Positions 5,761 to 61,012 of a stretch of 64,000 bases of DNA are shown here, piece by piece (within the stretch, counting starts at the first letter, position 1; the number at the start of each line of letters is the position of its first letter). The translations under genes and the position numbers were made by a program. The notes under the pieces are model-generated. The model had not been told where the DNA came from. It did not search any database and saw only the letters and a list, made by a program, of their open reading frames with translations. The stretch comes from Eledone cirrhosa (taxonomy: Eukaryota), in the NCBI GenBank assembly GCA_964016885.1, contig OZ024741.1, forward strand, positions 224,688,001-224,752,000, in the 5' to 3' direction.

Positions 5761-8700
5761 ATCACCAGACGAGGCTACTTCTCCATCCCCAAGGGAGCCT
5801 CGTAAATAAAAAAAGAGACACCACAAAGCCACAAAAACAAGAATCACGAACACGAACACACAACCACCAACATAAACAACAATACAAACACCACCACAAT
5901 CCCCCCCCCCCCCCACCACCAAAACAAACACCACACCACTCCAAACACAAGTGCCCACCATAAAAAGAAAACTACAAAATGAACAACAAACCAAACCAAC
6001 ACAACAAAAAACAACAACAACACTACACATACATTAACACAAACAACAAAAACCTAATGGAGGTCATCTCCCAAGACCCCAAAGTAGAAACTCAGAGGAA
6101 AACTTTTGTAAAAGCAGACTCTCAACCACACCTAAAACTAATAAGGGTTTCGATAGAAACCTATCAGAAATTGAAAGAACAGTTTTCACAGGATGTTGGC
6201 AACCCCTGCCAAAAACCAATAAACCGTGTTCTGTTGAAATGTTACCCCACCCCACTCAACACCCCCACCTGAACTGAAATGGAGATTGAACAACCCGATC
6301 TCCAGGAAACGAAAAGGTAAGTGCACCTTTTCGTTCTTTTCGCCAACTCTTCTCCACCAACATGGCTGACTTACGAGTTGGAAGCGTGAATGTGCGTGGC
6401 CTAGGGATGCCCTGGAAACGGCCAACTTTTAAACGACCTTAAGTCACACCGTATAGATGTAATAGCCATCACCGAGTCCAGGATCCACAACAGGCAACAA
6501 CTAACCCCTATTTTCAATGACTTTGAGATCTACGCATCTCTCTGTCAGCCGGGAGGTGGAGGGGGAGTGACTGTCATGTTTCGGAAAAACATGGATCTCG
6601 AAGTACAGCAAGTACACTTGGACCCGGAGGTTAGACTGGTAGTCCTAGATTTGAACAGTATTGGAGGTGGAGCCTTCAGACTGGTGGCCGTTTATGCTCC
6701 GACCGGGCAACACAATCGCGGCCAGACTTCTTTAAGCGTCTAGAGTCTTTTCTGGGAACGTCTCGCTCCTTGCTTTTAGTGGGGGACTGGAATGGTATCC
6801 TAGATGCACGATGGGACTATGTGGGAGCATGTCCCAGTAGAGCGGGGTGCAACAGCCTCAAAAATCTAATCAAAAATCTAATCGACTAGATTTCCCGACT
6901 GCACCACAATGGACATGGGAAAACCGCAGCGGGACATCTAGATCGTATCTAGATAGGTTTTTCATTAGAGAAAAGGACAAGAAGATGTTAAGCTGTCCAC
7001 AAATGTACATGGTTGCCTATTCAGATCACAAACTAGTCGTCTGCATAGTCAACCGTGATAGAATACATAGACAAGGACCCGGATACTGGAAGCTGAACGT
7101 GTCGTTGCCGGCACGAAAAGCCTACAGTGAACGGATAAATAGATTAGTTAAGCAAGAGTTGACGGGAGCCATCGTCAACAATAGATGGTGGTACTCTCTC
7201 AAGAGAGCAATTAGAGTAGAATCGATAGGATTTAGCAGAGAATTAGCTTTAGAGAAAAACAAATCAGAAACAGAACTAGTAGCCAAGGTAGAAGAGGCGC
7301 TTAGGAGTGGCAACGCAGCTAGAGTGCTAGCATCGAGAACGACACTGGACCAGGTTTTCGACGCGAAATACGAAGGCTGCGTAGTCAGAAGTAAATCATG
7401 TGCTCTAGGAAACGAGGGAGCAAAAGCTGTTAGCTGGATCCGAGTGGCGGAAGTGAAAAGTGGCAACAAGTCCACGATTCGTTCCTTGAAAGACCAAAAC
7501 ACGCGTGCTACTTGACCCCAGGCAGATGTGCGCGGCCTTTCAGCGGCACTTTGCGCGACTGTTTGAGCAGAACGACGGTGCACCGAACGGGGCAATGGAC
7601 TTTGGTTCATACCACGACGGCCTGCCACGTCTCTCAGCATGGACGCCGAGTTCTGCGAAAGACCGACCACAGCCACTGAGATACTGGGTCATTGCGGGAA
7701 ACGCAAATCACCCTGTCTAGATGATCTACCCTTGGTCTACCCTATGAGTTTTACATAGGCATGCCAGATTTGTTCTCTGGCGTCCTCGAAGCCGTCTACT
7801 ACAATTGGCAGCAGAACGGGACAATTCCCAGTTCTGCAGGCAAGGGCGTAGTAACGTTGATCAGGAAAGACGGGAACAAGGGGGACGAAATAAACAATTT
7901 CAGGCCCATAACTCTGCTCAACATAGAATTAAAGATTTTGGCCAAGGTGCTAGCAACGAGGCTGGCGCTTGTCGTCGAAAACCTGGTAGGTAAAGCGCAA
8001 ACGTGTGCAATCATAGAGAGAGTGGGGTGTAAACCCGGCTTCGGTGGGGCTCTGATCAATTTAGATCAGTCTAAGGCATTCGATAGGGTCGACCATCGAT
8101 ACTTGGAAGCGGTTCTCAAGGCGGCCGGTTTCGGTCCCGTTTTCAGGGGCTGGATCAAGGCGATGCACACCACCATCTGCGCGAGGGTCAAGGTGAACGG
8201 CTACCTATCGGAGCCGTTCGCAATCACGCGTTCCATTCGACAGGGATGTCCTCTCTCCTCGATTCTGTACGTATTGACTCTAGAGCCACTACTGCGGAAG
8301 TTGGAGCTTTTGCAGGACATCCCTTTAGAACCGGGACTGCGAAAAGCGGCGTCGGCTCATGCCGACGACGTGACGGTAATGGTGTCGAAAACCTCGGAAA
8401 TCAAGGTCGGACGCTGGACGGAAGGACCGATGAAATTTCTCGGGGTCTGGTTCGGTCCAGACCTCCAGTTGGAGAAAAACTGAAACGAGGTCATAGCCAA
8501 GGTATTTGCGCTCACCCAGAAGTGGGGAGAGTGCAAACTGTCTTTGAAAGGTCGAGCGGAGGTGGCGAACACTTTCATAGCGTCCGTCATCTAATACCGC
8601 TTGACTGTCGTGCCATGTCCCCGTGAATACCTCACCAAGATGGAACGCTTACTCTTCCAGTTCCTGTGGAAGAAGCAGGCTTCACTGGTGAGGAGATCCG

Positions 8701-10042: not shown

Positions 10043-11961
10043 ATGGATGCCATTTCAACCTCTCACACTGTAGTGAGTGCCACGCCCACTAAGAAAAGTG
10101 GTGGAGGAAAGGTAGGAGTACAAAGCTTGCAGCCTTCCCCCCTCGCCTTATCGAAAAACGTTGTAAATATTGCAACCAAGGAACCAAACCTGGTAAATAA
10201 TACCAGCACCAACAACAAGAACAATGACAATAACACCACAACCAACAACTGCAACAATAACAACACCAACTCCAAGGAAAATATGAACAACATCAACAAC
10301 AGTGACAATAACAACAGCAACAAGAAAGACAACAACACCAAAATATTGTTCGCACAAACTGTAAAAAAAAAAACAGAACTATAAACTCCAATTGACATCA
10401 CTAGCGCAAAACATCTACTCCAAGATGCAAAATACTATGTAACTTTTGGACAAAAGGGTGCAATTCTCCCCAGGTATTACGTTGAGAGACTGTCCTGAAA
10501 ACCACAGTTTTCAGGACAATATCAAACGCAACTAGAAAACCAGCTCAATAATCACAAAATGAAATTGAGCTGGTTCTAAAAGATGTAATGAAGGACATAA
10601 CCTTCATCCAAAGAGGAAAACTGTTTGGTAGCATTTCGGTGCTAATGAATGACCAGCAAACAGCACAAAAATACGCTGTATCACCCATTGTCCCCCCCGT
10701 TTCACCTTTTCCCCCACATATAGGGGAAAAAGGACACAAAAAAAAATTATGAGTATCACACCAAATATAAATATTTGGTGGATACTATCTGGATTCATTG
10801 ATTTTGATGAAGACAGACTAATCTCAGTAGGAAAGTCCTCCAGAGGTGTATTTAGTTGGACTAGCGTAGAAGTTCTGGTTCAAATGAGCCCAGAATGAAT
10901 AGTTAAAATCCCACAACGCGTGCCTCTGGACGGGCTAACCTATATAAACATTTCAGTTGAGGGTAGGTGGCTGTCATGTTACCACTGCTTAAGCAGGGGT
11001 CACCTGAGGGCTGCTTGTCCTCAATTAACGAGTAAAAAAAGGCTCTTCTGCCAACCCCGAATACAACAACACAACCACCACCACCACCACCACCACCACC
11101 ACCACAACCACCACAACAACACGAAAAAATAACAACACAAGACACTGTCCCACCCAATCCCTCACCACCTAAAACAAATACAAAAGCACCCGCAACCACA
11201 ACAAACCCCCAAAATATACCCCTCCCCAACAACACGGACGAGGACCCCTTATCAACGTCACCCAGTGACGACGAGGGAGAGCCCTTTCAAACAGTAAAAA
11301 GAAAGAAAAGAAGGCACCATATTAACACAAATGCAACAAACACACAACCACCAGCACAAACAGAACAAACATCACAAACAAAAACCACCACTCCCGAAAA
11401 CATAACACATACTACAAAACGCAAACACACACAAGAACAACAAAAAAACAATAAAACAAAACAAACACAACACAACAAAACCATTATGCATACATCAACA
11501 CAAACAACAAAACACTTGTACAAACAATAGACAAAGACCCTTCGGTGGAAACCGAAGGGAAAATGTTCACCAACGCGGCGAATAAACCGCATTAAAAAAT
11601 GATTAGGGTCCCAAGGGACACCTACGCAATGCTCAAACAAAACTTTCCCGAGGACGTGGGGAACCCCTGTACTAGACCTTCCAACCGCATTCTTTTGAAA
11701 TGTTTCCCCACCACCACCCCAGACACCCCACCCCACCACACACTGATGTCTCCACCACACCCCAAACCACCACCCCACCAAACAACCCCTCCAACACCCA
11801 CATGGAAATTGTGCAGCCTGGTCCTCAGGAGACGGAGAGGTAGGTGTCTTTTCTTTTTCTCCACTTTAACTCTTCACCACCAACATGGCTGTTATAAGAG
11901 TTGGATGCTTATGCTTGCGCGGCCTGGAGTTGTCCTGGAAGCAGGGCAAACTCTTAAATGA
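10043..11961 (+). pseudogene. ORF1 of copy B (gag-like, single CCHC knuckle)
   Basis: Fragments homologous to ORF1 of copy C; CYHCLSRGHLRAAC knuckle; several stops and frameshifts. Confidence 0.85.
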
Positions 11962-14900: not shown

Positions 14901-15316
14901 TGCGTGCGTGACGAGGAAACCGTCGCGCACGCATTAGTACACTGCCCGGGCGTTGCTGCCCTGTGGGGCTATGTAGAACGACTACTGTCGCGGATGGGAC
15001 CAATCCGGTTGACCACCGAGTCCATTGTCATGATTAAACCGCCTCCCCCCCTTCAAAAAACGAAGGAGAGGCGGTTTTCCTTTGTGTGATAGCTATGGCT
15101 AAAGAGGTTGTATGGTGGACGAGGTTGAAAGGGATGAGGTCAGACACCTTTCTCTCCGGCCAACAACTGATCCTTTTTTTCAAATACCACTTTGGAAGAA
15201 GAATCAGGATGGAGAGAGAGGTGCTGCACCCCAGCAAGTTTTTTGAAAGGTGAGTGAAAGTGGCGAGAATGGCCCGAGTGAATGGGCCTTCTCTCTATAT
15301 CAGCCTATCTCTATAG
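11885..15316 (+). pseudogene. ORF2 of copy B (APE-RT-CCHC), disrupted
   Basis: GDWN, SDH, DQSKAFD, YADD and CPRC motifs spread over several frames. Confidence 0.93.
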
Positions 15317-15580
15317 GTTGAGGGAAAAGAGGAAGAGAGGAAAGGAGTACTCACTCTTTGTACTCCCGGAGATGAGGGTTGCACATTTTTTTCGGGGGTA
15401 CGTGTTACCCATATGTAATGTCTCCCCTATTGGGGAAAATCGATTAATTTTTAAATTGCATTTGTGATAGTATTTTACACGTTTTTATTGTATGTAAACT
15501 TTCCCCTTTGTATTTGTCCCCTTCTTTTGTGCCCCCGTGGCTAATAAAGAAACATATCTATCTATCTGACTGCTTAACTG

Positions 15581-21623: not shown

Positions 21624-24310
21624 CTACTGTCCATATATCTTGAGGAAGGTCCCGGCCCTGAGGTGTCTGCATGTCCCGAAGAAGTCGGTTCTGAGGTTTA
21701 TCATGCGGTTTCCACCTCTTAGTATCTCGAGGGTCTCGTTTAGACATAGTTTGCATATGCCAGATCCTCCTTTATCGGGTGGTACTTTCCTGATTATGGA
21801 CCAGGCCAGAGAGTACGGGGTCCTGTCCAGCTTAAGCTTCCAGATCAGGTCAGAGAGAGCCGTACTTTTCCTTTTGGCCTCCTTATTGAAAGAATGGCGA
21901 TGGTTATACCAACGGTCTTTGAAGCTCGTTGATGTGGCTCCTATGTAGAGGTGTTCGGAGTTGAGGGTTTTAACCCTACAACCGTATACTAGGTTCTTCT
22001 TAAGGCATTCATTACTAAGGGGGCATGATTCGGGGTTTCTGCAGTTGCAGAGGGTGGTCGACCTCTGCGTGCCTAGAGTGGGGTTCCCGTTAAGTGTTAC
22101 ATGGTGGTCTTCCCCCGGGATCGGTGGGGTGGGGTGGGGTGGGGGTGGGGGGTCCCCGGGTCTGTTTGGGTTTCTTGGGTGGGCACTGGGTCCCCTTCTC
22201 TCCTTCCACATGGTTCTGCTGGGTGCTTGTATTGCCATCTTCTGGTTGTGTGTGGTTTTTAAGCCCACTCCTTTTGATGCTAGCTGTGTTGGACCAGATT
22301 TCTCGTGGTGGAATACGAGAGCTTCACAGTGTGTCTGTTGAAGATCTTGTGGTATCTATGGTCCCTCGGGAAGCATTTATCAAGTGCTTCAAAGAATGAT
22401 CGGGCCAAGCTGTTCTTTAGGGTCGCTGAGTAGGGTGGGTTGTACCACGTGATTTTTCTGCGTCTCCTCCTATATGGGTGGGTTGGGGGCGTTGTGAGTT
22501 GTTGGAGATTTGTTGGGTTGCTGGTGGTTCCCGCATTGTTGCTTCCCCTTTGGACGCTATGCGTTTTGCTATCTTCACGGCCCGAATCTGTGGGGTGGTC
22601 GTTGCCCGCGCTGGGAGATCCACCGTGTGGTGGTCCCCCGTTGCCCCCTCCCCCCACGTGTCCTGCGGTTGGGGTCGCCGGGCCCGGGGTGGTTAGCATC
22701 ACCCCTGAGACTGCTACTCATATTGGGTTTCATCTCATGGTTAAGCGTACTCGTCACCAACGCCCATGTGGTGGTGTCGGGCTCATGGTGCCTATTTGTT
22801 TCTGTTCTGCCTGCATTGTTAGGATTCGCCCCCTCCCGGACAACGCGGGTGTGGGTGTCCGTTGGGCCATCCCCATCCCGGCGTTTCGGACTATATGTTA
22901 TATTTTGGCCATGTGCCGCCTTATTTAGAGCTGCGTTGTAATATTCCGCGTTGTTATCGAATATTTCCTTACTTGCGGACATGCTGGAGATCCTGTCCGA
23001 GACACTCTTCACCACGGCCTTGGTTATGGATCTAGGGTGGTTTGACTTGGCGTTAACATACACGAGTTTCTCGTTGGGCTTGTGGTAGGGGTAGTATTAT
23101 TCGGTGTTCAGGTTTAGGGTGGTGTCTAGGAAGTTAACTACCTTACTATTTGGGTCTAGTTCGATACTGAGCTCCTGGTTCTTAAAGAAATGGCGAATAC
23201 GCCTCCTCATTCGCTCCAACATATTGGTGCTGTGGTCATATACTGTGAAGAGAGCATCGTCACGATATAATCCGCCGCACAGGCAGGGGATTTCATCTTT
23301 TATCTGCTTCAGCAGGAAGAGCCCACCAGGTCCATTACCTGTGCTAAGTCGCTGGAGCCCATCGTGATGTCAAAGTTATTTGGCCAATCACTCCTGGTCC
23401 AAAGGTCTCCATCGAAACGGATTAAGGTCTTTATTGCGGCGTGGATGATGCTCACCTCCTCTCGGGTTAGGTCCGTATTGGACATCGCTAAAAATAGGGC
23501 CTTATTGAGTACTATGGGTGAGATTGAGGAGTAGTAGCCTGCGATATCCAGTTGTATAAAGCTGGTCTTACTTTTCTCATGTAGTGTCTTAAACCATTCT
23601 ATTACCTCTCCCGTGCATGACCATTGCTGTAATCTAGTTTTTTTCCGAAGCTTGGGCAAAATCCTATCTAGTATTCTTTTACTGACGATCCCTAGGTCAC
23701 ATCCGGAGGGGGCTATTAGTCTGACAGGGAGGTCGGACTCAAATTTTGGCTTGTGATCTTTAAGGGTAATCCGCGGCTCCCTTGGTTCGTATGGGGCCGT
23801 CCTGTCCTCTATGCCGAGTCCAGATATAATCCTGTAAGCTGTGGCATTGATCTCATCCAGGGTAAATCCAGGTGTTTTTTTGTAGCACTTCCTCAGTTCC
23901 CTGAGAATTAGCTTATTATACAGTTCAGTGTTCATGTTGTAGAGGTTGTTGGTTTTGTCAGCATGGACAAGTATTCCAGTTGTCTCTTTAAGTACTGTAA
24001 TCCAGTTTCTCAGGTGTCTGAGGAACTTCTGACTTCTGGTTGGGTTTCCGGAGGATTTGAGGTTGGATATGATGTTAATCATCTCGTTTTCAAACCCCTC
24101 CATTAGTCTGTTGCGGGGGGGGGGGGATTCCTCCTTGATCGAAATGTTTTGTGTATTGGTAATTTTTTGCGTTCCTCTTTCGAAGTGGAACGCCTTCCAT
24201 CTCATCCTACGGACGAGGGAGTCCGTACTCCTGATAAGATCATTGGTGTATTCTCGTTTGTCAGTTAGGGGGATGTCTTTCAGTGACTCTAAGGTTACCA
24301 GTTTTTCCAT
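21624..24310 (-). pseudogene. Penelope/Naiad RT + GIY-YIG endonuclease ORF, frameshifted
   Basis: SLKDIP N-terminus, ADKTNNLY, ITLKDHK, DIAGYYSSI, GLYRDD (23256-23267), KITWYNPPYS, CNC...CPL..CL...VY...YIG...CKLC...CRH. Confidence 0.92.
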
Positions 24311-45293: not shown

Positions 45294-46272
45294 AAATTAC
45301 CTCTATTAATTCATAGCTTCTAAATTCAACGGAGAAAAATCAGGTGGGTAAATTGGTGTAATCAGTCTAGCACAGTTACCAGCAAAATAAGTGGGGTTAG
45401 TTCAATTCCCACGCTTGCAGATGCCCATTTTCCCCCGTTATTGGGGCTTATATATGTCCTGACATATTATAAACAAACATGCTCCTTTACACATACGCAT
45501 ACACATTCGCACAATATATTTATACTGTACACAATAATTAGACTGGTTTCTAATGTTTCACGGTAAGGCCATAGGTTGACTCCCAGGGAGAAGAAACCTG
45601 TTTGATCTGTCAAACTTGAAAGTTAAAACGGTTATTTAGGTATTTTGGTTTTGCTGCGTAACCATTTTGCCTGAAGATTATAAGGTCATACAGGTTTGTC
45701 TTCTCTGAGAACTCATTCCACAGCTTCACCATGAAACTTAAGTAACAAATATATTATTTAAGTATAATAAAAGTATCAAATTTAAATCTGCCATCGGCAC
45801 TAATTTCGTTCTATATGATGAATGTTCCTCCAGTCACTGGTACTCTCAGCTCCCAAATGATAGAGGGTGTTGGAATAAGCGGGGTTGGGGGTGGTGGTTG
45901 GGAAATCGGTAATTGTATAGTGTATGTTCGTAAATATGGGTTTTCTTGTAACGTTCTTTTCCTGTCATATATAATGTCTTTTGAAATGTAAAATAAAATT
46001 ATTAGATTCTCCAGCTGCTGTATCAATATGAATCACTTACAATAAAATCTATCTATCTATCTATCTATCTTGATAGAGTAAGACACGCTTCACATCGGCT
46101 CCGCTATTCCATCGGGATTTACCCTTACTATTGTAAGTACCGGATAAATTTTTCAGTGCAACACATTTGGAACACTAACCCCTGTTATTTAGGGAAACAT
46201 TTTTGCATTTACCCCCTTTTTAGGGGGTAAAATAAATATCTATTTTTGCCGAAAAATTTCGTTCTTGGCAGC

Positions 46273-48060
46273 ATGGCGGAAAAGATGGCAGACATGTCTG
46301 CCATTAGCTCTGCCACGCCCCCTAAGTCTGAAGAACAAAAAATAATTACAACAAAATTAGACAACGAAAGAAACAAAGAAAATGAAAAAACAAATGTTAA
46401 GGAAAATGAGCAAACGGAAAACAAACAAACAGAAAATAATACAAATAACAACAGGGCAACTTTCGCCCAGAAAACAAAACAATCCATTACATACACACCA
46501 ATTGACCTAACGGCCGCCAGAGAAAAACTGGCCGAAGCAAAGAAACACATTGTTTTGGGGGAAAACGGAATGTTTTCCATTAACTCCCCCCCAGAATTCA
46601 AGAAAGCGAGAACAGAGAACACAGTTCTCTTCAGAACAATCCTAAACCAAACAAGAAAGCCAGCACAGCCCAGCCAAATGGAGATAGAGTTGGTCCTAAA
46701 AGACTATATGAAGAATATTCTCTTCATACGAAAGGACCGACTCTATGGCAGCATTTCGGTCCTAACAAAAGACAAGGAAACGGCGGAGAAGCTTTCCCTA
46801 AGCCCACTCTCATCGACAACATACAGCTTCTATCCCTCCTACATGGGTAGAAGAACACAGAGAGTAAAAATACAAACAATGCTGCCCACAATGGACTTCT
46901 GGTGGGCTATTGCTGGCTTCATAGACATGGGCGAGGACACAGTGCTGTCAATGGGGAAGGCATCCGGAGATGCGTTCCTGGGAATGGGCCTCGACCTCCT
47001 AGTCCAAATGAGACCCGAAAGAATAGCACAAATCCCGGATCGCATCTGGCTGGATGAGCTCACCCCAATAGATATAATTGTAGAGGGGAGAAGACCAGCA
47101 TGCTATTTATGCACGGAAAGGGGACACATTAAGGCTAACTGCCCGAAACGTATCCCCCAAAAAGGACTATTGCCCACACCCATCACAAACAGTACACCAA
47201 CACCACCCACCTCCAAAAATACACTAATACCACACACAGCAAACAAAATACAAACACCACCAAGCACAACACAAACATCACCATCACCAGCACCAAACAC
47301 AAGCACGACACAAAAATCACCACCACCATCACCAACACAAACACCACCACCACCATTACCAACCACAAGCACGACACAAACAGCACCACCACAAAACGCA
47401 TTCCAAACAAATAATAAAAAAAAACAGCAACAAATCTACCCCTCCCGCAAAAAAAAAACAACCACACAACACGTCCCTCTCACCTAGCGCTGAAGAGTTT
47501 CCCCCAACTTCTGAAGAAGAAGGAGGAGAAACCTTCAGACAGGTTAAAAGAAAAAAAAGAAAGCACACACCCAGCACACCACAAATAACCCACACACAAA
47601 CACCAACTCCAATAAAAAACACCCCACCCTCAACAAACAAAAATAAATCTGCGCCTCCCCTCTCCGAAACATTGACAGCATCACAAAAAAAGACATTGCA
47701 ATACACATATATAAATAAAGAAAACAAAAAAACTGTTTAAATTAATAAACAATAGCCCTTTGGTGCAGACCGAAGGGCCAAACTTTATCTCAACAGAGAA
47801 CTTCACCCATTTAAAAATGATAAAGGTCCCTCTGGACCTTTATCGTTCCTTAAAAGAACAATTTAGACAGGACGTGAGCCCCCCCCCCCCCCTGTTTAAA
47901 ACCGTTAAATCGCGTCCTCTTGAAAGATTTCCCCATAACCTCCCCTCTCCCTGACACAACTCCAAACACCCCCAACCCCACCACACTCGGGCACCCCCAC
48001 AAAACATCCCTCCACCCAACACACCTGACGCCATGGAAATTACACAGCCCGGAGAGGTAG
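46273..48060 (+). CDS. ORF1 of copy C (gag-like, CCHC knuckle, T/P-rich linker, basic KRKKRK patch); three homopolymer frameshifts
   Basis: ATG 46273; CYLCTERGHIKANC; frame restored across A-runs near 47450 and 47728 and a C-run near 47885, ending PWKLHSPER* at TAG 48058-48060. Confidence 0.85.
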
Positions 48061-48091
48061 GTGCTTTTCTTTCTTCACTTTCAACACCAAA

Positions 48092-51000
48092 ATAGATCAA
48101 TTGAGAGTTGGCTGTTTGAACGCGCGTGGCCTGGGCTCAGCTTGGAAGCAAGCAAAGCTACTAAGTGACCTCAGGTCACGAAGTATAGATGTGATGGTTG
48201 TTTGCGAGAGTCGGATCAGCAGCGTGCGACAGCTGGCTCCCGCCTTCGATGACTTTGAGATGCACGCATCTCTCTGTCAACCCGGAGGCGGGGGGGGGGG
48301 AGTTGCCGTACTGCTGGATAAACGTCTGGCTCTCGACGTACAGATTGTTCACTCGGACCCGGGGGGTCGATTACTGGTGCTGGACGTCGGAGGCGGTGAA
48401 GGCGGGGCTTTCAGACTGGTCGGTCTTTATGCCCCCTTCGGAGCTGAAAGAGCCGACTTCTTCCAGCGACTGGAGACTTTTCTAGGAACGTCGCGTTCCC
48501 TGCTTTTAGTGGGGGACTGGAATGGAATCCTAGATGCGCGTTGGGACTATGCAGGGGCATGTCCCGATAGAGGGGGGTGTAGCAGCCTCAAGGGGTTACT
48601 CGATCGATTCGACCTGGTCGATAGATTTCGACTAGATTGTCCAACTGCACCAACCTGGACCTGGGCAAACCGCAGTGGACAATCTAGATCGTACCTAGAT
48701 AGGTTTTTGGTTAGGAGTAAGGATAGGGACGTATTTAGTTGTCCAGAATTGATCATGGTTGGCTATTCAGATCACAAATTAGTGACCTGCGTGGTCAACC
48801 TTGATAGAACGCATAGACAGGGTCCCGGTTACTGGAAGATGAACTTGTCCTTGCCGGCAAAGAAAGATTACAGGAACCGGATTAGTAGCTTAGTTAAGAT
48901 GCGGTTGACGGGAGCGATCGTCAACAGTAGGTGGTGGGTATCTCTAAAGAGAGAGATTAGAGTAAGTTCGATAGGTTACAGTAAGGAACTAGCGGCGAAT
49001 AGAAATAGGAAGGAAAGGGAGTTAACAGATAAACTAGAAGAGGCGATTAGGAGCGGAGACGTAGCCAGAGTGTTAGCGGCGAGAACGGCGTTGAGCCAGT
49101 TCTTTGACGCGAAGCACGAAGGCTGCGTTGTCCGAAGTAAAATACGTGCTTTAGGAAACGAGGGGACCAAAGCTGTTAGCTGGGCCCGCGTGACAGAAGC
49201 CAAGAGTGGGATTAAATCCACCATTCGGTCTTTGCGAGACCAGGATGGACGGGTGATCCTTGAACCTGAGCGGATGTGCGAGGCCTTTCAAAGGCACTTT
49301 GCTCGACTGTTCGGAGGGGGCGGGGGGCCGGAAGGGGATGTGGACTTCGGTCCATACCTCGACGGTCTACCGCGTCTTTCGAGCGGCGAAGCGGAGTGCT
49401 GCGAAAGGCCAATCACAGCCACTGAAATCGGGGAAGCGCTCAGCCAATGCAGCAGACGCAAATCTCCGGGTCTCGATGGTCTACCATACGAACTTTATTT
49501 AGCTATGCCGGTCTTGTTCTCCGAACTCCTCGAGGCTGTCTATTGCAACTGGCAACAGAACGGGAGAATTCCCTGTTCTGTGACCAAGGGCGTGGTCACG
49601 CTAGTGAGGAAGGACGAGAGCAAGGGGGACGACTTAAGTAACTTTAGGCCCATAACTCTGCTGAATGCAGAGTTACAGATTTTGGCCAAGGTGTTGGCGA
49701 AGAGGTTGGCGCTTGTGGTGGGTGGTTTGGTGGGAGACGCGCAGACATGCGCTATCCCGTCCAGGTCCATTCACGACAACCTCCACCTCATGCGATACAT
49801 CATAGAGAGGGTTGGCAACGAACCCGGCTTTGGTGGGGCCCTGATCAACTTGGATCAATCTAAGGCGTTCGATAGGGTCGACCATGGTTACCTGGATGCG
49901 GTGCTAGCGGCGGCGGGCTTCGGAGCCGTTTTCAGGGGCTGGATTTCTGCCATGCACAGTGGCAACATCTACTCTAGGATTAAAGTAAACGGCTACCTCT
50001 CGGAGCCGTTTCAAATCACCCGGTCCATCAGACAGGGGTGCCCCCTCTCCTCCCTTCTGTACGTATTGACTCTCGAGCCACTGCTGCGGAAGTTGGAGTT
50101 GCTGCGGGGCATACCCCTGGAACCGGGATTGCACAAAGCGGTCTCGGCCTATGCCGACGACGTAACAGTAATGGTGGCGGACGCCTCGGAAATCGGGGCG
50201 ATCGCCACCCTACTGGAGGAATACGAAAGGCTGACGGGGGCTAGGCTGAACCGGGACAAGTCAGTCGGTTTGCAACTCGGAACATGGAGGGGCAAACCGA
50301 TGCCGTTAGACGGTGTCGTAGGGCGGTGGACGGAGGGCCCGGTGAAGCTGCTCGGGGTCTGGTTCGGACCCGACCTCCAGGTGGAGAAGACTTGGGGCGA
50401 GGTGACGAGCAGGGTGTTTGCGCTAACGCAGAAGTGGGCCAAGTGCAAACTATCACTGAAAGGTCGGGCGGAGGTGACGAACGCTTACATAGCGTCCGTC
50501 ATCTGCTACCGCCTGACCGTCGTGCCTTGCCCCAAGGAAAAGATCACCATCATGGAACGCATGCTCTTCCAGTTCCTCTGGAAGAAGCGGCCTCCCATGG
50601 TGAGGAGATCCATCTGCTGCCAGCACCCTTCGAAAGGAGGGCTGGGTATGCCGTGGCTGTTGATGCGTAGGCACGCATTGAGGCTACGGCATCTACAGGT
50701 ATTCCTCACCGGTCAGCCGGTGTGGGCCCCGTTTGTGAGGCGAGCCTTCCCACAGCTCGTCTCGCTCACCGAGCTGCAATCCTGGGTGAAGAAAAGACCG
50801 AGAAAACTGGGCAACTGGCACACCGAGTGTGCCCAGGCGCTCACGGCTATCTGGCAAGCGGACCCGACTGTCAGTGGAGAATCCACCTCGACATTCTATA
50901 GAGGGCTGGTGGCTAGCAGGGGCGACGACACCCTTGGAGAGTCGCTAGGCATGGAGGAGGACGAACTGGCCAGCCTGTTCGGTAGAACTTTCGGCCCGGG

Positions 51001-51532
51001 ACCCATGGACAACTTCCAGAGGTCCCTAGCCTGGCAGTGTTACCGGGGGGCTCTGCCCGTTCGAGAAAAGCTCTACAGACACGGGCGCCCGGGCAGGGAT
51101 CCAGCGAAAAAGATCTGTCCCAGATGCGTGCGCGACGAGGAAACCGTTGCGCATGCACTGGTACACTGCCCGGGCGTTGCCGATCTGTGGGGCTACGTCG
51201 AACGACTGCTGTCGCGTGTGGCGCCGATTCGATTAACCGCCGAGTCTGTGGTGAACATCAAGCCGCCGCCTCCCTTCAGAAACGAAGCAGAGGCGGTCTT
51301 TCTGTGCGTAATAGCCATGATGAAAGAGGTTGTGTGGTGGACGCGCCTGAAAGGTCTGAGGTCGGGTGACTTTCTCTCCGGCGATCACCTGGTTTACTTC
51401 TTCCGATACCACTTCGGAAGAAGGATCAGGATGGAGAGAGAGGTGCTTGGCCCCAGACAGTTTTATGAAAGGTGGGTGAAAGAAGCGAGAATGGCTCGTG
51501 TAAATGGGCCTTCTCTCTACATTGTTCTGTAG
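48092..51532 (+). CDS. ORF2 of copy C: APE endonuclease, reverse transcriptase, CCHC finger; start codon reads ATA
   Basis: 1143-aa open frame from TTG 48101 with NARGL, GDWN, SDH, FRPITLLN, DQSKAFDRV, QGCPLS, YADD and CPRC...H...C; ATA at 48092 aligns with the ATG of the other copies. Confidence 0.95.
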   Translation: MDQLRVGCLNARGLGSAWKQAKLLSDLRSRSIDVMVVCESRISSVRQLAPAFDDFEMHASLCQPGGGGGGVAVLLDKRLALDVQIVHSDPGGRLLVLDVGGGEGGAFRLVGLYAPFGAERADFFQRLETFLGTSRSLLLVGDWNGILDARWDYAGACPDRGGCSSLKGLLDRFDLVDRFRLDCPTAPTWTWANRSGQSRSYLDRFLVRSKDRDVFSCPELIMVGYSDHKLVTCVVNLDRTHRQGPGYWKMNLSLPAKKDYRNRISSLVKMRLTGAIVNSRWWVSLKREIRVSSIGYSKELAANRNRKERELTDKLEEAIRSGDVARVLAARTALSQFFDAKHEGCVVRSKIRALGNEGTKAVSWARVTEAKSGIKSTIRSLRDQDGRVILEPERMCEAFQRHFARLFGGGGGPEGDVDFGPYLDGLPRLSSGEAECCERPITATEIGEALSQCSRRKSPGLDGLPYELYLAMPVLFSELLEAVYCNWQQNGRIPCSVTKGVVTLVRKDESKGDDLSNFRPITLLNAELQILAKVLAKRLALVVGGLVGDAQTCAIPSRSIHDNLHLMRYIIERVGNEPGFGGALINLDQSKAFDRVDHGYLDAVLAAAGFGAVFRGWISAMHSGNIYSRIKVNGYLSEPFQITRSIRQGCPLSSLLYVLTLEPLLRKLELLRGIPLEPGLHKAVSAYADDVTVMVADASEIGAIATLLEEYERLTGARLNRDKSVGLQLGTWRGKPMPLDGVVGRWTEGPVKLLGVWFGPDLQVEKTWGEVTSRVFALTQKWAKCKLSLKGRAEVTNAYIASVICYRLTVVPCPKEKITIMERMLFQFLWKKRPPMVRRSICCQHPSKGGLGMPWLLMRRHALRLRHLQVFLTGQPVWAPFVRRAFPQLVSLTELQSWVKKRPRKLGNWHTECAQALTAIWQADPTVSGESTSTFYRGLVASRGDDTLGESLGMEEDELASLFGRTFGPGPMDNFQRSLAWQCYRGALPVREKLYRHGRPGRDPAKKICPRCVRDEETVAHALVHCPGVADLWGYVERLLSRVAPIRLTAESVVNIKPPPPFRNEAEAVFLCVIAMMKEVVWWTRLKGLRSGDFLSGDHLVYFFRYHFGRRIRMEREVLGPRQFYERWVKEARMARVNGPSLYIVL

Positions 51533-51764
51533 GTGAAGAAGTGAAGAGGAAAGGGGGAGCGCCTCCTCCCTGGGCTTCCCCCGCGAAAAGGGTTGCACAC
51601 TTTTCGGGGGGTATGTGCAATCCCGAACACGCCCCCTCCCTTTTGAGGACTTTTTATTATTATATTATTATTGTTATTCCTTTTTTCTTTACTCGATTTA
51701 TGTAAACTCCCCCACTGTGTATTTGTCCCCTTCTTTTGTGCCCTCGTGGCAAATAAATAGAAAT

Positions 51765-51837
<73 letters not shown>

Positions 51838-51840
<3 letters not shown>

Positions 51841-51937
51841 TGCATTTGTGATAGTATTTTACACGTTTTTATTGTATGTAAGCTTCCCACTTTGTATTTG
51901 TCCCCTTCTTTTGTGCCCCTGTGGCTAATAAAGAAAC
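51838..51937 (+). mobile_element. ~100-bp 3' tip of a B/D-subfamily element within (TATC)n
   Basis: Matches 15456-15553 and 57129-57227. Confidence 0.88.
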
Positions 51938-51969
51938 ATATCTATCTGTCTGTCTGTCTATCTACTTAC

Positions 51970-52034
<65 letters not shown>

Positions 52035-52983: not shown

Positions 52984-55900
52984 CGCAAACACAACCAAAA
53001 CAAGAACAACAAACCAACCTGCAAGCACAGTCCCACCAAACCCCACTCCACCTAAAACCACTGCAAAAACACCCACAAACACAACAACTCCCCAAAACAT
53101 ACCCCTTCCAAATAACACAGAGACCACAACGGACGAGGCCCCCACATCAACACCAAGTGATGATGAGGGAGAGCCTCTCTGTTCGAAAAGAAAGAAGAAA
53201 AGACACCACAAGAACAAAAAACAACAAACATCACTACAAACATACAACCACCAACACAAACAACACAAACATTACAAACAAAACCCCCCCGTCCCGAAAA
53301 CAAAACCACGACATCACTCCAAACACAAACACCTACAACAAAACGAAAGCTCCCATAAGGACAACAGACAAAAACCACCGCAACATAACAAGAATATTAC
53401 ACATACATAAACAGTAAAAACAAAACTTTAATGGAGGTCATCAAAACTTTTTCGAACTGTGTAGACAAACCTAATTTAAAGATGATTAGGGTCCCTACGG
53501 ACACCTATAAGTCTTTAAAGGAAAACTTTCCTAAGGACGTGGGTAATCCTTGTGTTAAACCCATTAACCGCGTCCTTTTAAAAAGTTTCCCCAACCTCAC
53601 CCCAGACACACCCACCCAGAGACCCCCACCCCACCAAACATCTCCGTCCCCACCCCGCCGGAAACCACAACCCACCCAGACAACTCCTCTAACATCCCCA
53701 TGGAAACCGTGCGGCCTGATCCCCGCGAGACGAAGAGGTGAGTGTTTTCTTCTCCTCTTTTAACTTTTCAGGACCAACATGGCCAATATAAGAGTTGGGT
53801 GTGTGAATGTACGCGGCCTGGGGATGCCCTGGAAACAGGGCAAACTCTTAAACGACCTCAGGTAGCACAGTATGGATGTAGTAGCCATTTGCGAATCCAG
53901 GATCCACAGCGAGCGACAGCTGGCCCCCATCTTCGATGACTTTGAGATCTACGCATCTCTCTGTCAGCCGGAGGGTGGGGGCGGGGTTGCCGTTTTGCTG
54001 CGGAAACACCTGGGCCTCGTAACACAGACGGTACATCTGGACCCAGAGAGTCGACTGGTGGTCCTAGACGTTGACGGTAGTGAAGGTGGAGCCTTCAGGC
54101 TGGTGGCCGCATATGCCCCATCCGGGACACCGCGGCCAGACTTCTTCAAACGTCTAGAGACTTTTCTGGGAACGTCCCGCTCCTTGCTTTTAGTGGGGGA
54201 ATGGAATGGAATCCTAGATGCACGTTGGGACTATGTGGGAGCATGTCCCGATAAAGGGGGGTGTAACATCCTCAAACAGTTAATCGGCCAATTTGACCTG
54301 GCCGATAGATATCGACTAGATTTTCCGACTGTGCCACTGTGGACGTGGACTAATCGTAGCGGAACATCTAGATCGTACCTAGATAGGGTTCTAGTTAGAA
54401 ATAAGGATAGGGATGCAAAGCCTACAGTAGACGGATTAGCACTTTAGTTAAACAGCACTTGACAGGGGCCATTGTCAACAACACATGGTGGTACTCTCTC
54501 AAGAGGGCAGTTAGATTAGACTCGTTAGTTTTCAATAAAGAATTAGCGTTAGATAGAAATAGAACCCAGAAAGAATTGGTAGATAAAGTAGAAGAGGCAA
54601 TTAGAAGTGGCAACGTAGCCAGCGTGCTAGCAACGAGAACGGCCTTGGACCTGTTATTCGACGCAAAGCATGAGGGCTGCGTTGTCAGAAGCAAAATACG
54701 TGCTCTGGGAAGTGAGGGAGCCAAAGCTATTAGCTGGGCCCGAGTGACGGAGGCAAAAAGTGGCAACAAGTCCACGATTCGGTCTTTGAAGGACGAAAAC
54801 GGACGCGTGATACGTGAGCCGAAGCAGATGTGTGCGGCCATTCAACGGCATTTTGCTCAGCTGTTCGGGCAGGGCGGCGCGCCGGGAGGGGCTATGGATT
54901 TCGGTCCATACCTCGACGGCCTACCGCGACTCTCGGACAGCGAGGCAAAGTTCTGAGAAAAGCCGATTTCAGCCGCTGAGATAGGGGACGCGTTGAGCCA
55001 ATGCGGCAAACGCAAATCTCCAGGTCTCGACGGTCTACCCTACGAATTTTACGTAGCAATGCCGGACTTATTCTCCGGTCTCCTGGAAGCGGTCTACTGC
55101 AACTGGCAACAGAACGGGAGAATTCCCAGTTCTGTGACCGGGGACGTAGTCACACTAGTCAGGAAGGACGAGAATAAGGGGGATGACATAGGCAACTTCC
55201 GGCCCATAACTCTGCTAAACACAGAGTTACAGATTTTGGCCAAGGTGTTGGCAAAGAGGCTGGCGCTTGTCGTCGAGAACCTGGTGGGAGAAGCGCAGAC
55301 ATGCGCAATCCCGACCAGGTCCATACACGACAACCTCCACCTCATGCGATACATCATAGAGAGGGTAGGGTGTAAACCCGGCTTCGGTGGGGCCCTGATC
55401 AACTTGGATCAGTCTAAGGCTTTCGATAGGGTTGACCATCGTTACCTGGATGCGGTGCTCGAGGCGGCAGGCTTCGGACCCGTGTTCAGGGGCTGGATTG
55501 CTGCAATGCATAACAGCAACCTCTGCTCAAGGGTTAAGGTGAACGGCTACCTCTCGGAGCCGTTCCATATCACACGATCCATTCGAAAGAGATGCCCTCT
55601 CTCCTCCCTTCTGTACGTATTGACTCTCGAGCCACTACTGCGGAAGTTGGAGCTATTGCAGAGCATCCCTCTGGAACCGGGACTGCGGAAAGCGGCGTCG
55701 GCCTACGCCGACGACATGACAGTAATGGTGTAGAGCGCCTCGCAAATCGAGGAGGTCGGCACCTTACTGAAGGAATACGAAAGGTTCACAGGAGCGAAGC
55801 TGAACCGGGACAAGTCCATCGGTTTGCAACTCGGATCGTGGAGAGGCAAACCGATGCCTTCCGATGGCGTCGTCGGACGCTGGACGGAAGGACCTGTAAA

Positions 55901-57227
55901 GCTGCTCGGGGTCGGGTTGGTCCGGACCTCCAGGTGGAGAAGAACTGGAACGTGGTGTCTGCCAAGGTGTTTGCACTCACACAGAAGTGGGCCGAGTGCA
56001 AACTATCATTGAAAGGTCGAGCGGAGGTGGCGAACACTTTTATAGCGTCCGTCATCTACTACCGCTTGACCGTCGTGCCTTGTCCAGCCAAAACGCTCGC
56101 CAAAATGGACCGCGCGCTCTTTCAATTCCTTTGGAAGAGGCGGGCTCCTTTGGTGAGAAGATCCATCTGCTGCCAACGCTCTTCCAACGGAGGGCTGGGG
56201 ATGCCGTGGCTGACGATGCGCAAACACGCGCTCAGGCTGCGGCATCTCTACGTATTCCTCACCGGACAACCGGTGTGGGCCCCGCCGGTGAGGCGAGCCT
56301 TCCCACGACTCGTCTCGCTGACCGAGCTGCAGTCCTGGGTCAAGCAAAGACCGAGGATAATGGGCGACTGGCACATCGAATGTGCTCAGGCGCTCACAAC
56401 CCTCTGGCAGGCGGACCCGGCGATCAGTGGAGACTCCACTTCGTCGTTCTATAGAGGGTTGATCCGCAGCAAGTGCGACGACGTGCTCGGTGAAACTCTG
56501 GGCGTAAAGGAAGACGAACTGGCCAGTCTGTTCGGTAGGACCTTCCGCCCGGGACCGATGGACAACTTCCAAAAGTCTCTGGCCTGGCAGTGCTACCGAG
56601 GAGCTCTACCAGTTCGAGACAAGCTCTACAGACATGGGCGCCCGGGCAGGGACCCTGCAAAAAAGATCTGTCGAGGTGCGTGCGAGACGAAGAAACCGTC
56701 GCGCACGCATCCATACACTGCCCGGGCACCACCGACCTGTGGGGCTATGTGGAACGACTATTGTCGCGGGTGGGACTAATTCAGTTGACCACCGAGTCCA
56801 TAATCATGATCAAACCACCACCCTCCTTCAAAAACGAATGAGAGGCTGTTTTCCTTTGTGTGATAGCTATGGCGAAAGAGGTTGTATGGTGGACAAGGTT
56901 GAAAGGGCTGAGGTCAGACACCTTTCTCTCCGGCCAACAACTGATTCTTTTTTTCAAATACCACTTCTCTCTATATCAGCCTGTAGGTTGAGGAAAAAGA
57001 GGAGGAGAGGAAAGGAGTACAAACTCTTCGTACTCCTGGAGATGAGGGCTGCACATTTTTTTTACGGGGGTATGTGTTACCCATATGTAATATCTACCCC
57101 TATTGGGGAAAATCGATTAATTTTTAAATTGCATTTGTGATAATATTTTACACGTTTTTATTGTATGTAAACTTCCCCCTTTGTATTTGTCCCCTTCTTT
57201 TGTGCCCCTGTGGCTAATAAAGAAACA
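52035..57227 (+). mobile_element. Tx1-like copy D, slightly 5'-truncated, degenerate (B/D subfamily)
   Basis: ORF1 remnants 52035-53763; ORF2 from ATG 53779 to TAG 56986 with deletions near 54413 and 56965; AATAAA+(ATCT)n. Confidence 0.95.
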
Positions 57228-57252: not shown

Positions 57253-60200
57253 CTTTATCTGCCTGACGCGTGGAACATCGCCGGTAAGATCTTTTGTAAA
57301 TTTATATACGAAAAACAGAACAAATTGTTTGAAAAACCATACTATTTTGTAGATTAACCCCGAAGCTGAACAACCCGATTGAACAACCCGATTGAACAAC
57401 CCGATTCCAGAAAACGAAAAGGTAAGTGCACCTTTCGTCCTTTTTCTCCAATTCTTCTTCACCAACATGGCTAGTTTACGAGTTGGACGCGTGAATGTGC
57501 GTGGCCTAAGGATGCCCTGGAAACAGGGCCAACTTTTAAACGACCTTAGGTCACACGGTATGGATGTGATAGCCATCACCGAGTCCAGGATCCACAACAG
57601 GCAGCAACTAACCCCCATCTTCGACGACTCTGAGATCTATGCATCTCTCTGTCAGCCAGGAGGTGGGGTGGGGGTGGGGGGTGGGGAGTGGCTGTCATGT
57701 TTCGGAAGAACCTGGACGTCGAAGTACAGCAAGTACACTTGGACCCGGAGGGTAGACTGGTAGTCCTAGACGTGAACAGTATTGGAGGTGGAGCCTTCAG
57801 ACTGGTGGCCGTTTATGCCCCGACCGGGCAATCGCAATCACGGCCAGACTTCTTTAAGCGTCTAGAGTCTTTTCTGGGAACGTCTCGCTCCTTACTTTTA
57901 GTGGGGGACTGCAATAGTATCCTAGATGCACGATGGGACTATGTGGCAGCATGTTCCAGTAGAGGGGGTGCAACAGCCTCAAAACTTTAATCGGCCAATT
58001 CCAGCTGGCCGATAGGTATCGACTGGATTTCCCGACTGCACCACAGTGGGCAAACTTCAGCGGGATATCTAGATCGTATTTAGATAGGTTATTCATTAGA
58101 GAAAGGGACAAGGGGATGTTAAGCTGTCCACGAATGCACATAGTTGCCTATTCAGATCACAAATTAGTCGTCTGCTTAGTCAACCGTGATAGAAAACATA
58201 GACAAGGACCCGGATACTGGAAACTGAACGTGTCGTTGCCGGCACGTAAAGCTTACAGTGAACGGATAAGTAGACTAGTCAAGCAACAGTTAACGGGAGC
58301 CATCGTCAACAATAAATGGTGGTACTCTCTCAAGAAAGCAATTAGAATAGAATCGATAGGGTTTAGCAGAGAGTTAGCCCTAGAGAAATACAAATTAGAA
58401 AGAGAACTAGTAGCCAAGGTAGAGGAGGCTCTTAGAAGTGGCAACGCGGTTAGAGGGTTAGCGTCGAGAACGGCACTGGACCAGTTCTTCGATGCGAAAC
58501 ACGAAGGCTGCGTGGTCAGAAGCAAACCACGTGCTCTAGGAAACGAAGGAGCGAAAGCTTTCAGAAGCACATTGCGCGACATTGAGCTGAACGGAGCAAT
58601 GGACTTTAGTTCATACCTCGACGGCCTACCGCGTCTCTCGAACACGGACACCGAGTTCTGCGAAAGACTGATCACGGACACTGAGATACGGGACGCTCTG
58701 GGCCGCTGCGGGAAACGCAAGTCACCCGGTCTAGATGGTCTACCCTATGAGTTTTACATAGGCATACCGGACATGTTCTCTGGCGTCCTCGAAGCCGTCT
58801 ACTGCAGTTGGCAGCAGAACGGGAGAATTCCCAGTTCTGCAGGCAAGGGCGTAATAACGCTGATCAGGAAAGACGAGAACAAGGGGGACGAAATTAACAA
58901 CTTCAGGCCCATAACTCTGCTCAACACAGAATTAAAGATTTTGGCCAAGGTGCTAGCGACGAGGTTGGCGCTTGTCGACGAGAACCTGGCAAGGAAAGCG
59001 CAATCGTGTGCAATCCCGACCAGGTCCATACACGACTACCTCCACCTCATGCAATACATCATAGAGAGGGTGGGTACTAAACCCGGCTTCCGTGGGGCTC
59101 TGATCAATTTGGATCAGTCTAAGGCTTTCGATAGGGTCGACCATCGATACTTGGAAGCGGTTCTCAAGGCGGCCGGTTTCGGTCCCGTTTTCAGAGGCTG
59201 GATCGAGGCGATGCACACCAGCATCTGCTCGAGAGTCAAGGTGAACGACTACCTATCGGAGCCGTTTGCAATTACACGCTCCATTCGACAGGTGCCCTCT
59301 CTCCTCCATTCTGTATGTATTGACTCTAGAGCAACTACTGCGGAATTTGGAGCTGTTGCAGGGCATCCCTCTAGAACCGGGACTGCACAAAGCGGCGTCG
59401 GCTTATGCCGACGACGTGACGGTAATGGTGTCGAGCACCTCGAAAATCGGGGTGATCGGCAACTTACTGAAAGGATACGAAACGCTGACGGGAACAAAAC
59501 TAAACCCGGACAAGTCTGTCGGTTTGCAACTCGGTACGTGGAGAGGCAAACCGATGACGTCCGACGGAGTCGTTGGACGCTGGACGGACGGACCGGTGAA
59601 ATTGCTCGGGGTCTGGTTCGGTCCAGACCTCCAGGTGGAGAAAAACTGGAACGAGGTCACGGCCAAGGTGTTTGCGCTCACCCAGAAGTGGGCAGAGTGC
59701 AAACTGTCCTTGAAAGGTCGAGCGAAGGTTTCCAACACTTTCATAGCGTCCGTCATCTACTATCGCTTGACTGTCGTGCCTTGTCTCCGTGAACACCTTG
59801 CCAAGATGGAACGCATGCTCTTCCAGTTTCTGTGGAAGAAGCAGGCTCCGCTGGTGAGGAGATCCGTCTGCTGTCAGCACCCTTCCAACGGAGGGCTGGG
59901 AATGCCGTGGCTGATGATGCGCAAACATGCGCTGAGGCTGCGGCATCTCCAGGCATTCCTCACCGACCCTCAACCGGCGTGGGAACCGTTGTGAGACAGT
60001 CTTTCCCACAGCTCGTCTCGCTGACGGAGCTGCAGCCCTGGGTCAAGAAAAGACCGAAAACGATGGGCGCCTGGCACATTGAATGCGCTCAGGCGCTCAC
60101 AGTCCTCTGGCAAGCGGGCGCAGCAATCAGTGGAGACTCCACTTCGACATTCTATAGAGGGATTGTACGTTCCAAGGGCGACGACGTGCTCGGAGAGACT

Positions 60201-61012
60201 CTGGGCGTCGAAGACGATGTGCTCAACAGTCTGTTTGGTAGTACTTTCCGCCTGGGACCTTTCGACAACTTCCAGAGGTCCATGGCCTGGCAGTGCTACC
60301 GAGGAGTTCTACTGGTCCGTGACAAGATTTACAGGCACGGACGCCCCGGCAGGGATCCTTCCAAGAGGATGCGCGCAGGACATTGAAACAGGACATTGTA
60401 CGCAATCGTACACTGCCCGTGCGTAACCGACCTGTGGAACTATGCAGAACAACTGCTGTCGCATATAGGACAAATCCAGTTGACTGCCGAGTCCATAGTA
60501 AGGATCAAACCGCCAGCCTCTTTCAAAAACGAAAGAGAGGCGGTTTTCCTTTGTACGGTGGCTATGGTGAAAGAAGTTATATGGTGGACGAGATTGAGAG
60601 GACTGAGGACAGATGCCTTTCTCTCCGGACAACAATTGATTCCCTTCTTTAAGTATCACTTTAGAAGGAGAATCAGAATGGAGAGAGAACCACTGCACCC
60701 CAGTAAATTTACTGAAAGGTGGGTGAATGAAGCGAAAATGGCCCGAGTGGTTGGGCCTTCTCTGTTTATAAGCCTGTAGGTTGAAGAAGAGAGCAAAAGG
60801 AAGAAAGGAGCACTTGCACAACACGCTCCTGGAGCTGAGGGTTGTTCTATCGACAGGGTATTAAACAACCCATTTGTGGCGCTTCCACCCTATTGGGGAT
60901 TTCGATTGTTGTAATTGTTTGTTTTTATATTTTTTACACGACTGTATGTAAAATTCCCGGCATGTCTTTGTATTGTCCCCTTTTCTTATGCGCCCTTGTG
61001 GCAAATAAAGAA
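57253..61012 (+). mobile_element. Tx1-like copy E lacking almost all of ORF1, degenerate (A/E subfamily)
   Basis: ORF2 from ATG 57467 to TAG 60779, disrupted; 3'UTR nearly identical to that of copy A; (ATCT)n on both sides. Confidence 0.95.

Follow-up and report, generated by a model that had tools for sequence, protein, structure and literature searches.

A conserved 5' splice site at the end of ORF1 and a predicted duplex spanning ORF2 in Tx1-type LINEs of Eledone cirrhosa

Introduction

The Drosophila retrotransposon copia splices out an intron that covers all of POL, and in the Arabidopsis element EVD, U1 also blocks early termination (PMC5580714; all published accounts are cited here from excerpts). 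In human L1, splice sites inside the element can leave spliced retrocopies, the SpIREs, which amount to about 2% of full-length L1s (PMC5860796). Tx1-type elements are long interspersed nuclear elements (LINEs) of the L1 clade that target microsatellites, such as Kibi at (TC)n, Koshi at (TTC)n and the crocodilian families at (TTCC)n (PMC4494074), and "L1-Tx1" is listed for Octopus vulgaris (PMC13282606). In this study, we analysed a window of 64,000 nucleotides from Eledone cirrhosa (contig OZ024741.1, positions 224,688,001 to 224,752,000, forward strand), which holds five plus-strand copies (A-E) of an L1/Tx1-type LINE with two open reading frames (ORF1 and ORF2), each copy ending in (TATC)n. 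The starting point was a prediction, made from the letters of the window, that the whole of ORF2 lies inside a spliceosomal intron.

Like the described Tx1-type LINEs, these elements combine two ORFs, an APE endonuclease, a reverse transcriptase, a zf-RVT domain and microsatellite flanks. Their targets are (TATC)n or (ATT)n depending on the family, instead of the (TC)n, (TTC)n and (TTCC)n of the named Tx1-type families. They differ in addition by a donor at the ORF1 stop and a predicted duplex spanning ORF2, neither of which is seen in the excerpts of the two Tx1 accounts (PMC4494074, PMC13282606); the main text of the latter makes no mention of splicing, introns or ORF1.

The parallel with copia is that an intron of about 3 kilobases (kb) over the whole enzyme region would leave a message for the structural protein, and that a consensus 5' splice site is conserved. 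However, copia is a long terminal repeat element with a single ORF and demonstrated splicing, whereas here there are two ORFs, ORF1 has its own stop and splicing is what we infer. As in the shGAG RNAs of EVD and other plant Ty1-copia elements, a U1 site is conserved near the end of the structural gene and the donor is better kept than the acceptor (PMC5580714). In EVD, on the other hand, a short intron is coupled to early polyadenylation, whereas the present elements have a long-range arm complementary to the donor; a conserved early polyadenylation signal downstream of the donor was not found among the 14 family representatives described below. By analogy, the element would work like copia and EVD while being a member of neither group. 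SpIREs keep ORF2 and are dead ends, whereas here the donor is kept across families and exact-pattern searches of genomic copies revealed no exact GT-AG removal. Finally, termination-reinitiation in SART1 and L1 involves local structure (PMC5972666), whereas the partner strand lies here 3.4 kb away, at the ORF2 stop.

Results

A 5' splice site at the end of ORF1

All five window copies carry the predicted donor AG/GTRRGT (the slash marks the cut) at the end of ORF1, at 6317 (A), 11840 (B), 48057 (C), 53738 (D) and 57422 (E). Donors were scored against the U1 5' end, and the acceptor score used further on is crude and home-made.

48055..48062, plus strand: 5' splice site of copy C, AG/GTAGGT, the top U1 match among 245 GT sites in the element

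Of 131 distinct junction contexts from across the genome, 118 have G/GTRRGT within the 66 nt before the ORF2 start motif, whereas only 3 of 917 control windows contain it. Sampling junctions in genome order gave the donor in 25 of 28. The 13 contexts that miss it mostly show single changes in old copies, and one family reads CAG/GTAATT. For closer comparison we retrieved 76 near-full copies from about 20 families. Motif filters dropped 24 of 80 elements before the duplex analysis described below, and 14 family representatives were hand-picked from the remaining 56, leaving out, among others, the single copies L183 and L240, which have mismatched ends. The ORF2 DNA of these 14 is 68-93% identical and all of them had previously passed the donor-motif filter. 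The donor is the top U1 match among 231-301 GT sites in 13 of the 14, a figure that belongs to a donor-filtered set, the unbiased count being the 118 of 131 given above. AG/GT and the GT at +5/+6 are invariant in all 14 representatives, while the flanks vary and the distance to the ORF2 ATG ranges from 25 to 47 nt. In 15 of 17 representatives, the ORF1 stop and the donor are at most one or two codons apart. Moreover, the donor is found in ORF1 phases 0, 1 and 2, which, together with the varying distance to the ATG, means that codon constraint does not explain it. As distant controls we took 72 metagenome loci (mostly 21-34% identical) and kept the 19 with a complete ORF2 and a recognisable start, dropping 53; none of the 19 has a donor at the end of ORF1. 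Altogether, these comparisons strongly support selection for a 5' splice site where ORF1 ends, a position suited to a cut that would leave ORF1 whole.

It is very improbable that the motifs discussed here simply arise from an Arg codon, a stop codon and shared ancestry. The families are related, and in phase-2 families TAA, TAG or TGA fills donor positions +2 to +4, as such a reading would expect. However, the motif persists in phase-0 and phase-1 families between non-homologous flanks, the GT at +5/+6 is located after the stop, and the count against control windows already largely refutes this explanation.

Other splice-like signals were noted around the junction. The L289-L301 subfamily carries a 21-nt insertion ahead of an intact donor (12 of 14 hits), copies of the D clade have an acceptor-like TTTTAAC...TTTTCAG directly before the ORF2 ATG (53760-53775 in the window), and several families show a donor-like site 1.8-2.1 kb upstream of the one at the end of ORF1. 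The upstream site and the D-clade acceptor could permit an ORF2-only message. A mini-intron joining ORF1 to ORF2 was considered and rejected, as the AG before the ATG occurs only in the D clade and the length of the spacer varies over the range given above.

A predicted duplex between the two ends of ORF2

From the donor to about codon 8 of ORF2, the sequence is complementary to a segment 3.4 kb away that comprises the final ORF2 codons and the initial 45 nt of the 3' untranslated region (UTR). The duplex is predicted in all five window copies, with energies from -49.9 to -70.4 kcal/mol.

48049..48114, plus strand: 5' arm of C (donor, pyrimidine spacer, first ORF2 codons), -70.4 kcal/mol with its 3' arm
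51506..51574, plus strand: 3' arm of C (last ORF2 codons, TAG/G, purine tract and a stretch complementary to the donor)
6316..6382, plus strand: donor (6317) and 5' arm of A; the partner, 9563-9626, covers TAG/G at 9587; -49.9 kcal/mol
11832..11905, plus strand: donor (11840) and 5' arm of B; the partner, 15287-15362, spans TAG/G at 15316; -57.5 kcal/mol
53730..53803, plus strand: donor (53738) and 5' arm of D; the partner, 56957-57032, covers TAG/G at 56986; -68.3 kcal/mol
57421..57491, plus strand: donor (57422) and 5' arm of E; the partner, 60752-60818, covers TAG/G at 60779; -66.8 kcal/mol

When the 5' arm was compared with 284-300 windows along each element, the best partner was the ORF2 stop in 14 of 14 representatives, and the duplex beat 100 of 100 dinucleotide shuffles in every one of them. 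Cognate arms pair better than swapped ones (mean -58.4 versus -45.1 kcal/mol; permutation p about 1e-5, with kinship ignored), and on visual inspection, variants of the donor are accompanied by changes in the 3' partner. The predicted pairing places the ORF2 start opposite the ORF2 stop and covers the donor, the AUG and the TAG. In this arrangement, 9-14 of the 15 nt before the ORF2 stop are paired, as are 5-8 of the nine donor positions from -3 to +6 (17 of 17 representatives) and the T, the G and the next G of TAG/G (14 of 17). The minimum-energy fold of about 3.9 kb of copy E contains the duplex (42 pairs from 57422). None of the 19 distant LINEs has it.

Two copies left out of the representatives, L183 (-42.9 kcal/mol) and L240 (-44.5 kcal/mol), combine a 5' junction and a 3' end from different families and have weaker duplexes. 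A distinct hairpin in the 3' UTR, suggested by eye, was discarded because it was not significant (z -1.48 in C, -1.04 in E and +0.87 in B).

The explanation that we put forward, tentatively and at somewhat less than an even chance, is that the duplex over the donor, the ORF2 start and the ORF2 stop is a switch that shields the full-length RNA from splicing, the spliced RNA being an ORF1-only message. Alternatively, the duplex could be mainly a device for translation and cis preference, which would keep the ORF2 start buried until it is opened by ribosomes that terminate on ORF1, and would release the 3' UTR only after a ribosome has completed ORF2, with the donor as a secondary feature. We regard this as distinctly unlikely. 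It fits with the start and stop codons facing each other and with the requirement of SART1 coupling for a downstream structure (PMC5972666), and the lack of an AUG in family C, where the ORF1 stop overlaps an ATA, is what termination-reinitiation would lead one to expect. However, it offers no reason why a U1 consensus should be kept in three phases while its partner strand varies, and such a device can coexist with the splicing switch. In family C, ATA stands in place of the ORF2 ATG, overlapped by the ORF1 stop (48092-48095), in 20 of 20 parsed siblings, which suggests non-AUG reinitiation in a young family.

The end of ORF2 as a candidate acceptor

Each ORF2 in the window ends in TAG/GT (9587, 15316, 51532, 56986 and 60779) followed by a purine tract, and copies A, B, D and E have a further AG ahead of the TAG, both as originally described. 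TAG ends ORF2 in 13 of the 14 representatives.

51530..51533, plus strand: ORF2 stop TAG and following G of C, candidate 3' splice site, rank 1 of 267 AG sites on the crude score

The tract after the junction had been proposed as a splicing enhancer. It is indeed GAA-rich, but a separate enhancer was not borne out, as the tract partners the pyrimidine spacer of the 5' arm; we therefore set aside a stand-alone enhancer, although both roles are possible. In this sense, the sequences suggest that TAG/G, the preceding pyrimidines and the GAA tract are largely explained by the stop codon and by pairing with the spacer and the ORF2 start. These two factors provide most of the acceptor signal, whereas the donor stays at the U1 consensus though its partner varies.

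ORF1 frames and the stop after the joint

The original prediction joined the two sites in each copy and found a stop right after the junction. Its ORF1 frames, read from single decayed copies, were wrong for A, C, D and E. In siblings of C, ORF1 is open to the donor in phase 0 over 613, 567 and 461 codons (20 of 30 loci parsed). Phase 2 applies to the A/E family (4 of 5 copies) and to the D family (10 of 13 measurable copies, of 20), and the eight copies of the B family point only tentatively to phase 1, by column majority and with one alignment column tied. In the phase-2 families the ORF1 stop lies inside the donor, at bases +2 to +4, and a hypothetical splice in A/E or D adds 28-44 residues instead of stopping, so that the immediate stops claimed for A, D and E (G/GT TAA or G/GT TGA) disappear. 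The shortening of C by 14 nt and its exon start GTGAAG are real and family-wide, but they are not a compensating pair (AG/G TGA), since ORF1 of its siblings is in phase 0. A spliced C would read GAG/GTG AAG AAG TGA and end in VKK-stop.

With the family frames, what is left of the claim is a stop at most three codons past the joint in 10 of 17 representatives. This corresponds to 10 of 13 informative representatives versus 5.3 expected (p 0.007 if independent); the families are related, and by our count there are about five independent hits and two or three losses. Phase-matched stops thus lend modest support to splicing.

Weighing splicing against other uses of the donor

A number of observations weigh against splicing at the ORF2 stop and against the switch. 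On the crude score, TAG ranks first in only two of 14 representatives (C and one sister family) and 11th to 46th among about 260 AG sites in 11 of 14. In the largest young family, which has 4,290 intact donors, the ORF2 stop is TAA and the only substitute is an AAG located 7 nt beyond it (rank 72 of 265), and no clear branch-point motif was seen by eye before the TAG. A splice in A/E, D, four other representatives and the TAA family would add 27-65 unconserved residues. As to the duplex, no more than 9 of the 14 representatives have the cognate arm as the best partner of their row, and the minimum-energy fold of about 3.9 kb of copy C lacks it. Finally, spliced retrocopies with ORF1 fused to the 3' UTR, which the original prediction had named as its own test, were not found by exact-pattern searches, a procedure that misses mutated copies. 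The spliced joint of B/D had 0 matches versus 258 unspliced, families with a 38-nt ATG-to-donor motif gave, by eye, no spliced copy among 14 and 57 listed hits versus 2,628, the TAA family none among 2 and 39 hits versus 4,290, and C none, here without a matched denominator. By comparison, 15,855 copies retain the unspliced ORF2 end, and about 6,900 intact donors entered the comparison. Spliced RNA would keep the 3' UTR, and thus about 300 nt of reverse transcription would be enough to reveal the joint. L1 proteins, on the other hand, prefer their own RNA (PMC5860796). Given such cis preference and the use of exact patterns, the lack of retrocopies limits the germ-line abundance or trans-copying of spliced RNA but does not exclude it. 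Contigs of sequencing runs of unrecorded kind, to which we give no weight, showed no donor-to-TAG joint among the 15 listed of 320 on copy B (four runs); on copy C, one run (X4) yielded 5 joints, none of them at 48056-51533, and contigs that pass through both sites unspliced. Altogether, of the proposed intron the selected donor stands, while excision of the entire ORF2 at the TAG is a possibility.

A possible, if somewhat unlikely, account of these data is that U1 binds the donor without productive splicing and thereby prevents premature cleavage and polyadenylation of the growing transcript within ORF2, after which the 3' arm displaces U1 to allow polyadenylation and export of the finished RNA, the TAG being only a pairing stop codon. 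Such protection, a second role that U1 plays in EVD (PMC5580714), would account for a perfect donor without a conserved acceptor, for the absence of spliced retrocopies and for the anti-donor stretch in the 3' arm. It leaves unexplained, however, the location of the donor at the ORF1 stop and the 10 of 13 phase-matched stops, and a polyadenylation hexamer occurs inside ORF2 in only 9 of 14 representatives, unaligned and 0.67-1.9 kb downstream.

We consider it quite improbable that the donor is used with another acceptor, be it inside ORF2 (for example TTAG at 48506-48509), deeper in the 3' UTR or in a downstream host exon. An acceptor-like AG about 450 nt past the donor (48488-48509 in C) scores within the best four AG sites in 9 of 14 representatives, and one copy of the TAA family, L303 (G000:C4:91550985), lacks 346 nt starting at the donor and reaching a GG inside ORF2. 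But in every reference copy in which the site could be located (13 of 14), the missing segment ends with GG, and as a single case it is weak because the screen would pick up breaks of any kind that fall up to about 10 nt from the donor. In addition, the internal AG is used by no retrocopy found and its phase would not fuse the ORFs consistently.

The elements and their relatives

Copy C is the best preserved element of the window for ORF2, being the only one in which this frame is intact (1167 codons, stop to stop).

46070..51765, plus strand: copy C, full-length L1/Tx1-type LINE between (TATC)n runs; siblings 96-99% identical
46273..48095, plus strand: ORF1 of C; family stop TAG at 48093-48095, phase 0 at the donor; zf-CCHC match below cut-off
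48092..51532, plus strand: intact ORF2 of C (APE endonuclease, reverse transcriptase, zf-RVT), with ATA at 48092 where other families have ATG
51752..51757, plus strand: AATAAA ahead of the (TATC)n tail of C (51766-51838)

ORF1 of copy C is disrupted by small indels, with a first stop at 47485-47487, and its zinc knuckle (PF00098) scores 17.9 bits versus a cut-off of 20.8; intact ORF1s of 593-714 codons are present in siblings and relatives. A word search with ORF1 gave no matches. The ORF2 of C matches PF03372, PF00078 and PF13966 (the last below cut-off), and its best match in the PDB is human L1 ORF2p (E 3.6e-48). Its closest named homologue is in Argonauta hians (63% identity), within a range of 38-68% for ORF2 relatives. 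Among 127 HMMER hits, those at least 330 aa long showed, by eye, no recognisable tail encoded by the 3' UTR at their C-termini. A degenerate ORF2-start motif has 13,126 matches in the 3.0-Gb genome versus 1 for a control.

C is flanked on both sides by (TATC)n, and a TATC-type pattern was found in 18 of 54 tails examined. Tails (L184-L198, L229-L234) vary by family, being (TATC)n, (ATT)n in the TAA family or, in one family, no microsatellite, differences pointing to distinct targets within one lineage. The elements were assigned to the Tx1 clade from their domains and targets, not from a tree. Within the window, the (TATC)n tail of C holds two stacked pieces (51839-52034), a short 3' end from a copy of the B/D type and, after it, the truncated start of D. 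On the minus strand, 21627-22355 has a weak GIY-YIG match (E 0.0016, below cut-off), possibly a Penelope-like remnant.

Discussion

The donor of these LINEs is conserved across ORF1 phases, and the sequence complementary to it lies at the far end of ORF2, matches by family and is predicted to pair over the start and the stop of this frame. From this arrangement we infer U1 binding, pairing in cells and splicing. In the splicing switch that we favour, U1 would bind the donor during transcription, and the 3' arm, emerging 3.4 kb later, would compete both with U1 and with recognition of the 3' splice site. Zipped RNA would stay whole, escape splicing and become the template for retrotransposition, whereas transcripts captured by the spliceosome would lose ORF2 and yield the ORF1-only message. 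The spliced form would have the TAG of ORF2 as its acceptor (in the TAA family, an AG close by) and may be a germ-line minority or be poorly copied in trans; it would raise ORF1p over ORF2p.

In a more far-reaching form, which is rather unlikely to hold in full, the whole of ORF2 would be a regulated intron and its start-to-stop zipper, co-evolving and carrying its own anti-U1 strand, would choose between genomic RNA and ORF1 message, gate the translation of ORF2 and restrict reverse transcription to zipped full-length RNA.

The switch would bear on how LINEs obtain high ORF1p and low ORF2p, how they avoid splicing of their own RNA and how cis preference arises. In the literature searched, namely listings and abstract openings that take in few subscription journals, no LINE was described as having a donor where ORF1 stops or a duplex across ORF2. 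With more than 13,000 copies that have an ORF2 start in one genome, this lineage provides about 20 natural arm pairs and exact mutations for testing. If the switch is real, the masking of a conserved U1 site by an end-to-end duplex across 3.4 kb would parallel copia through convergence.

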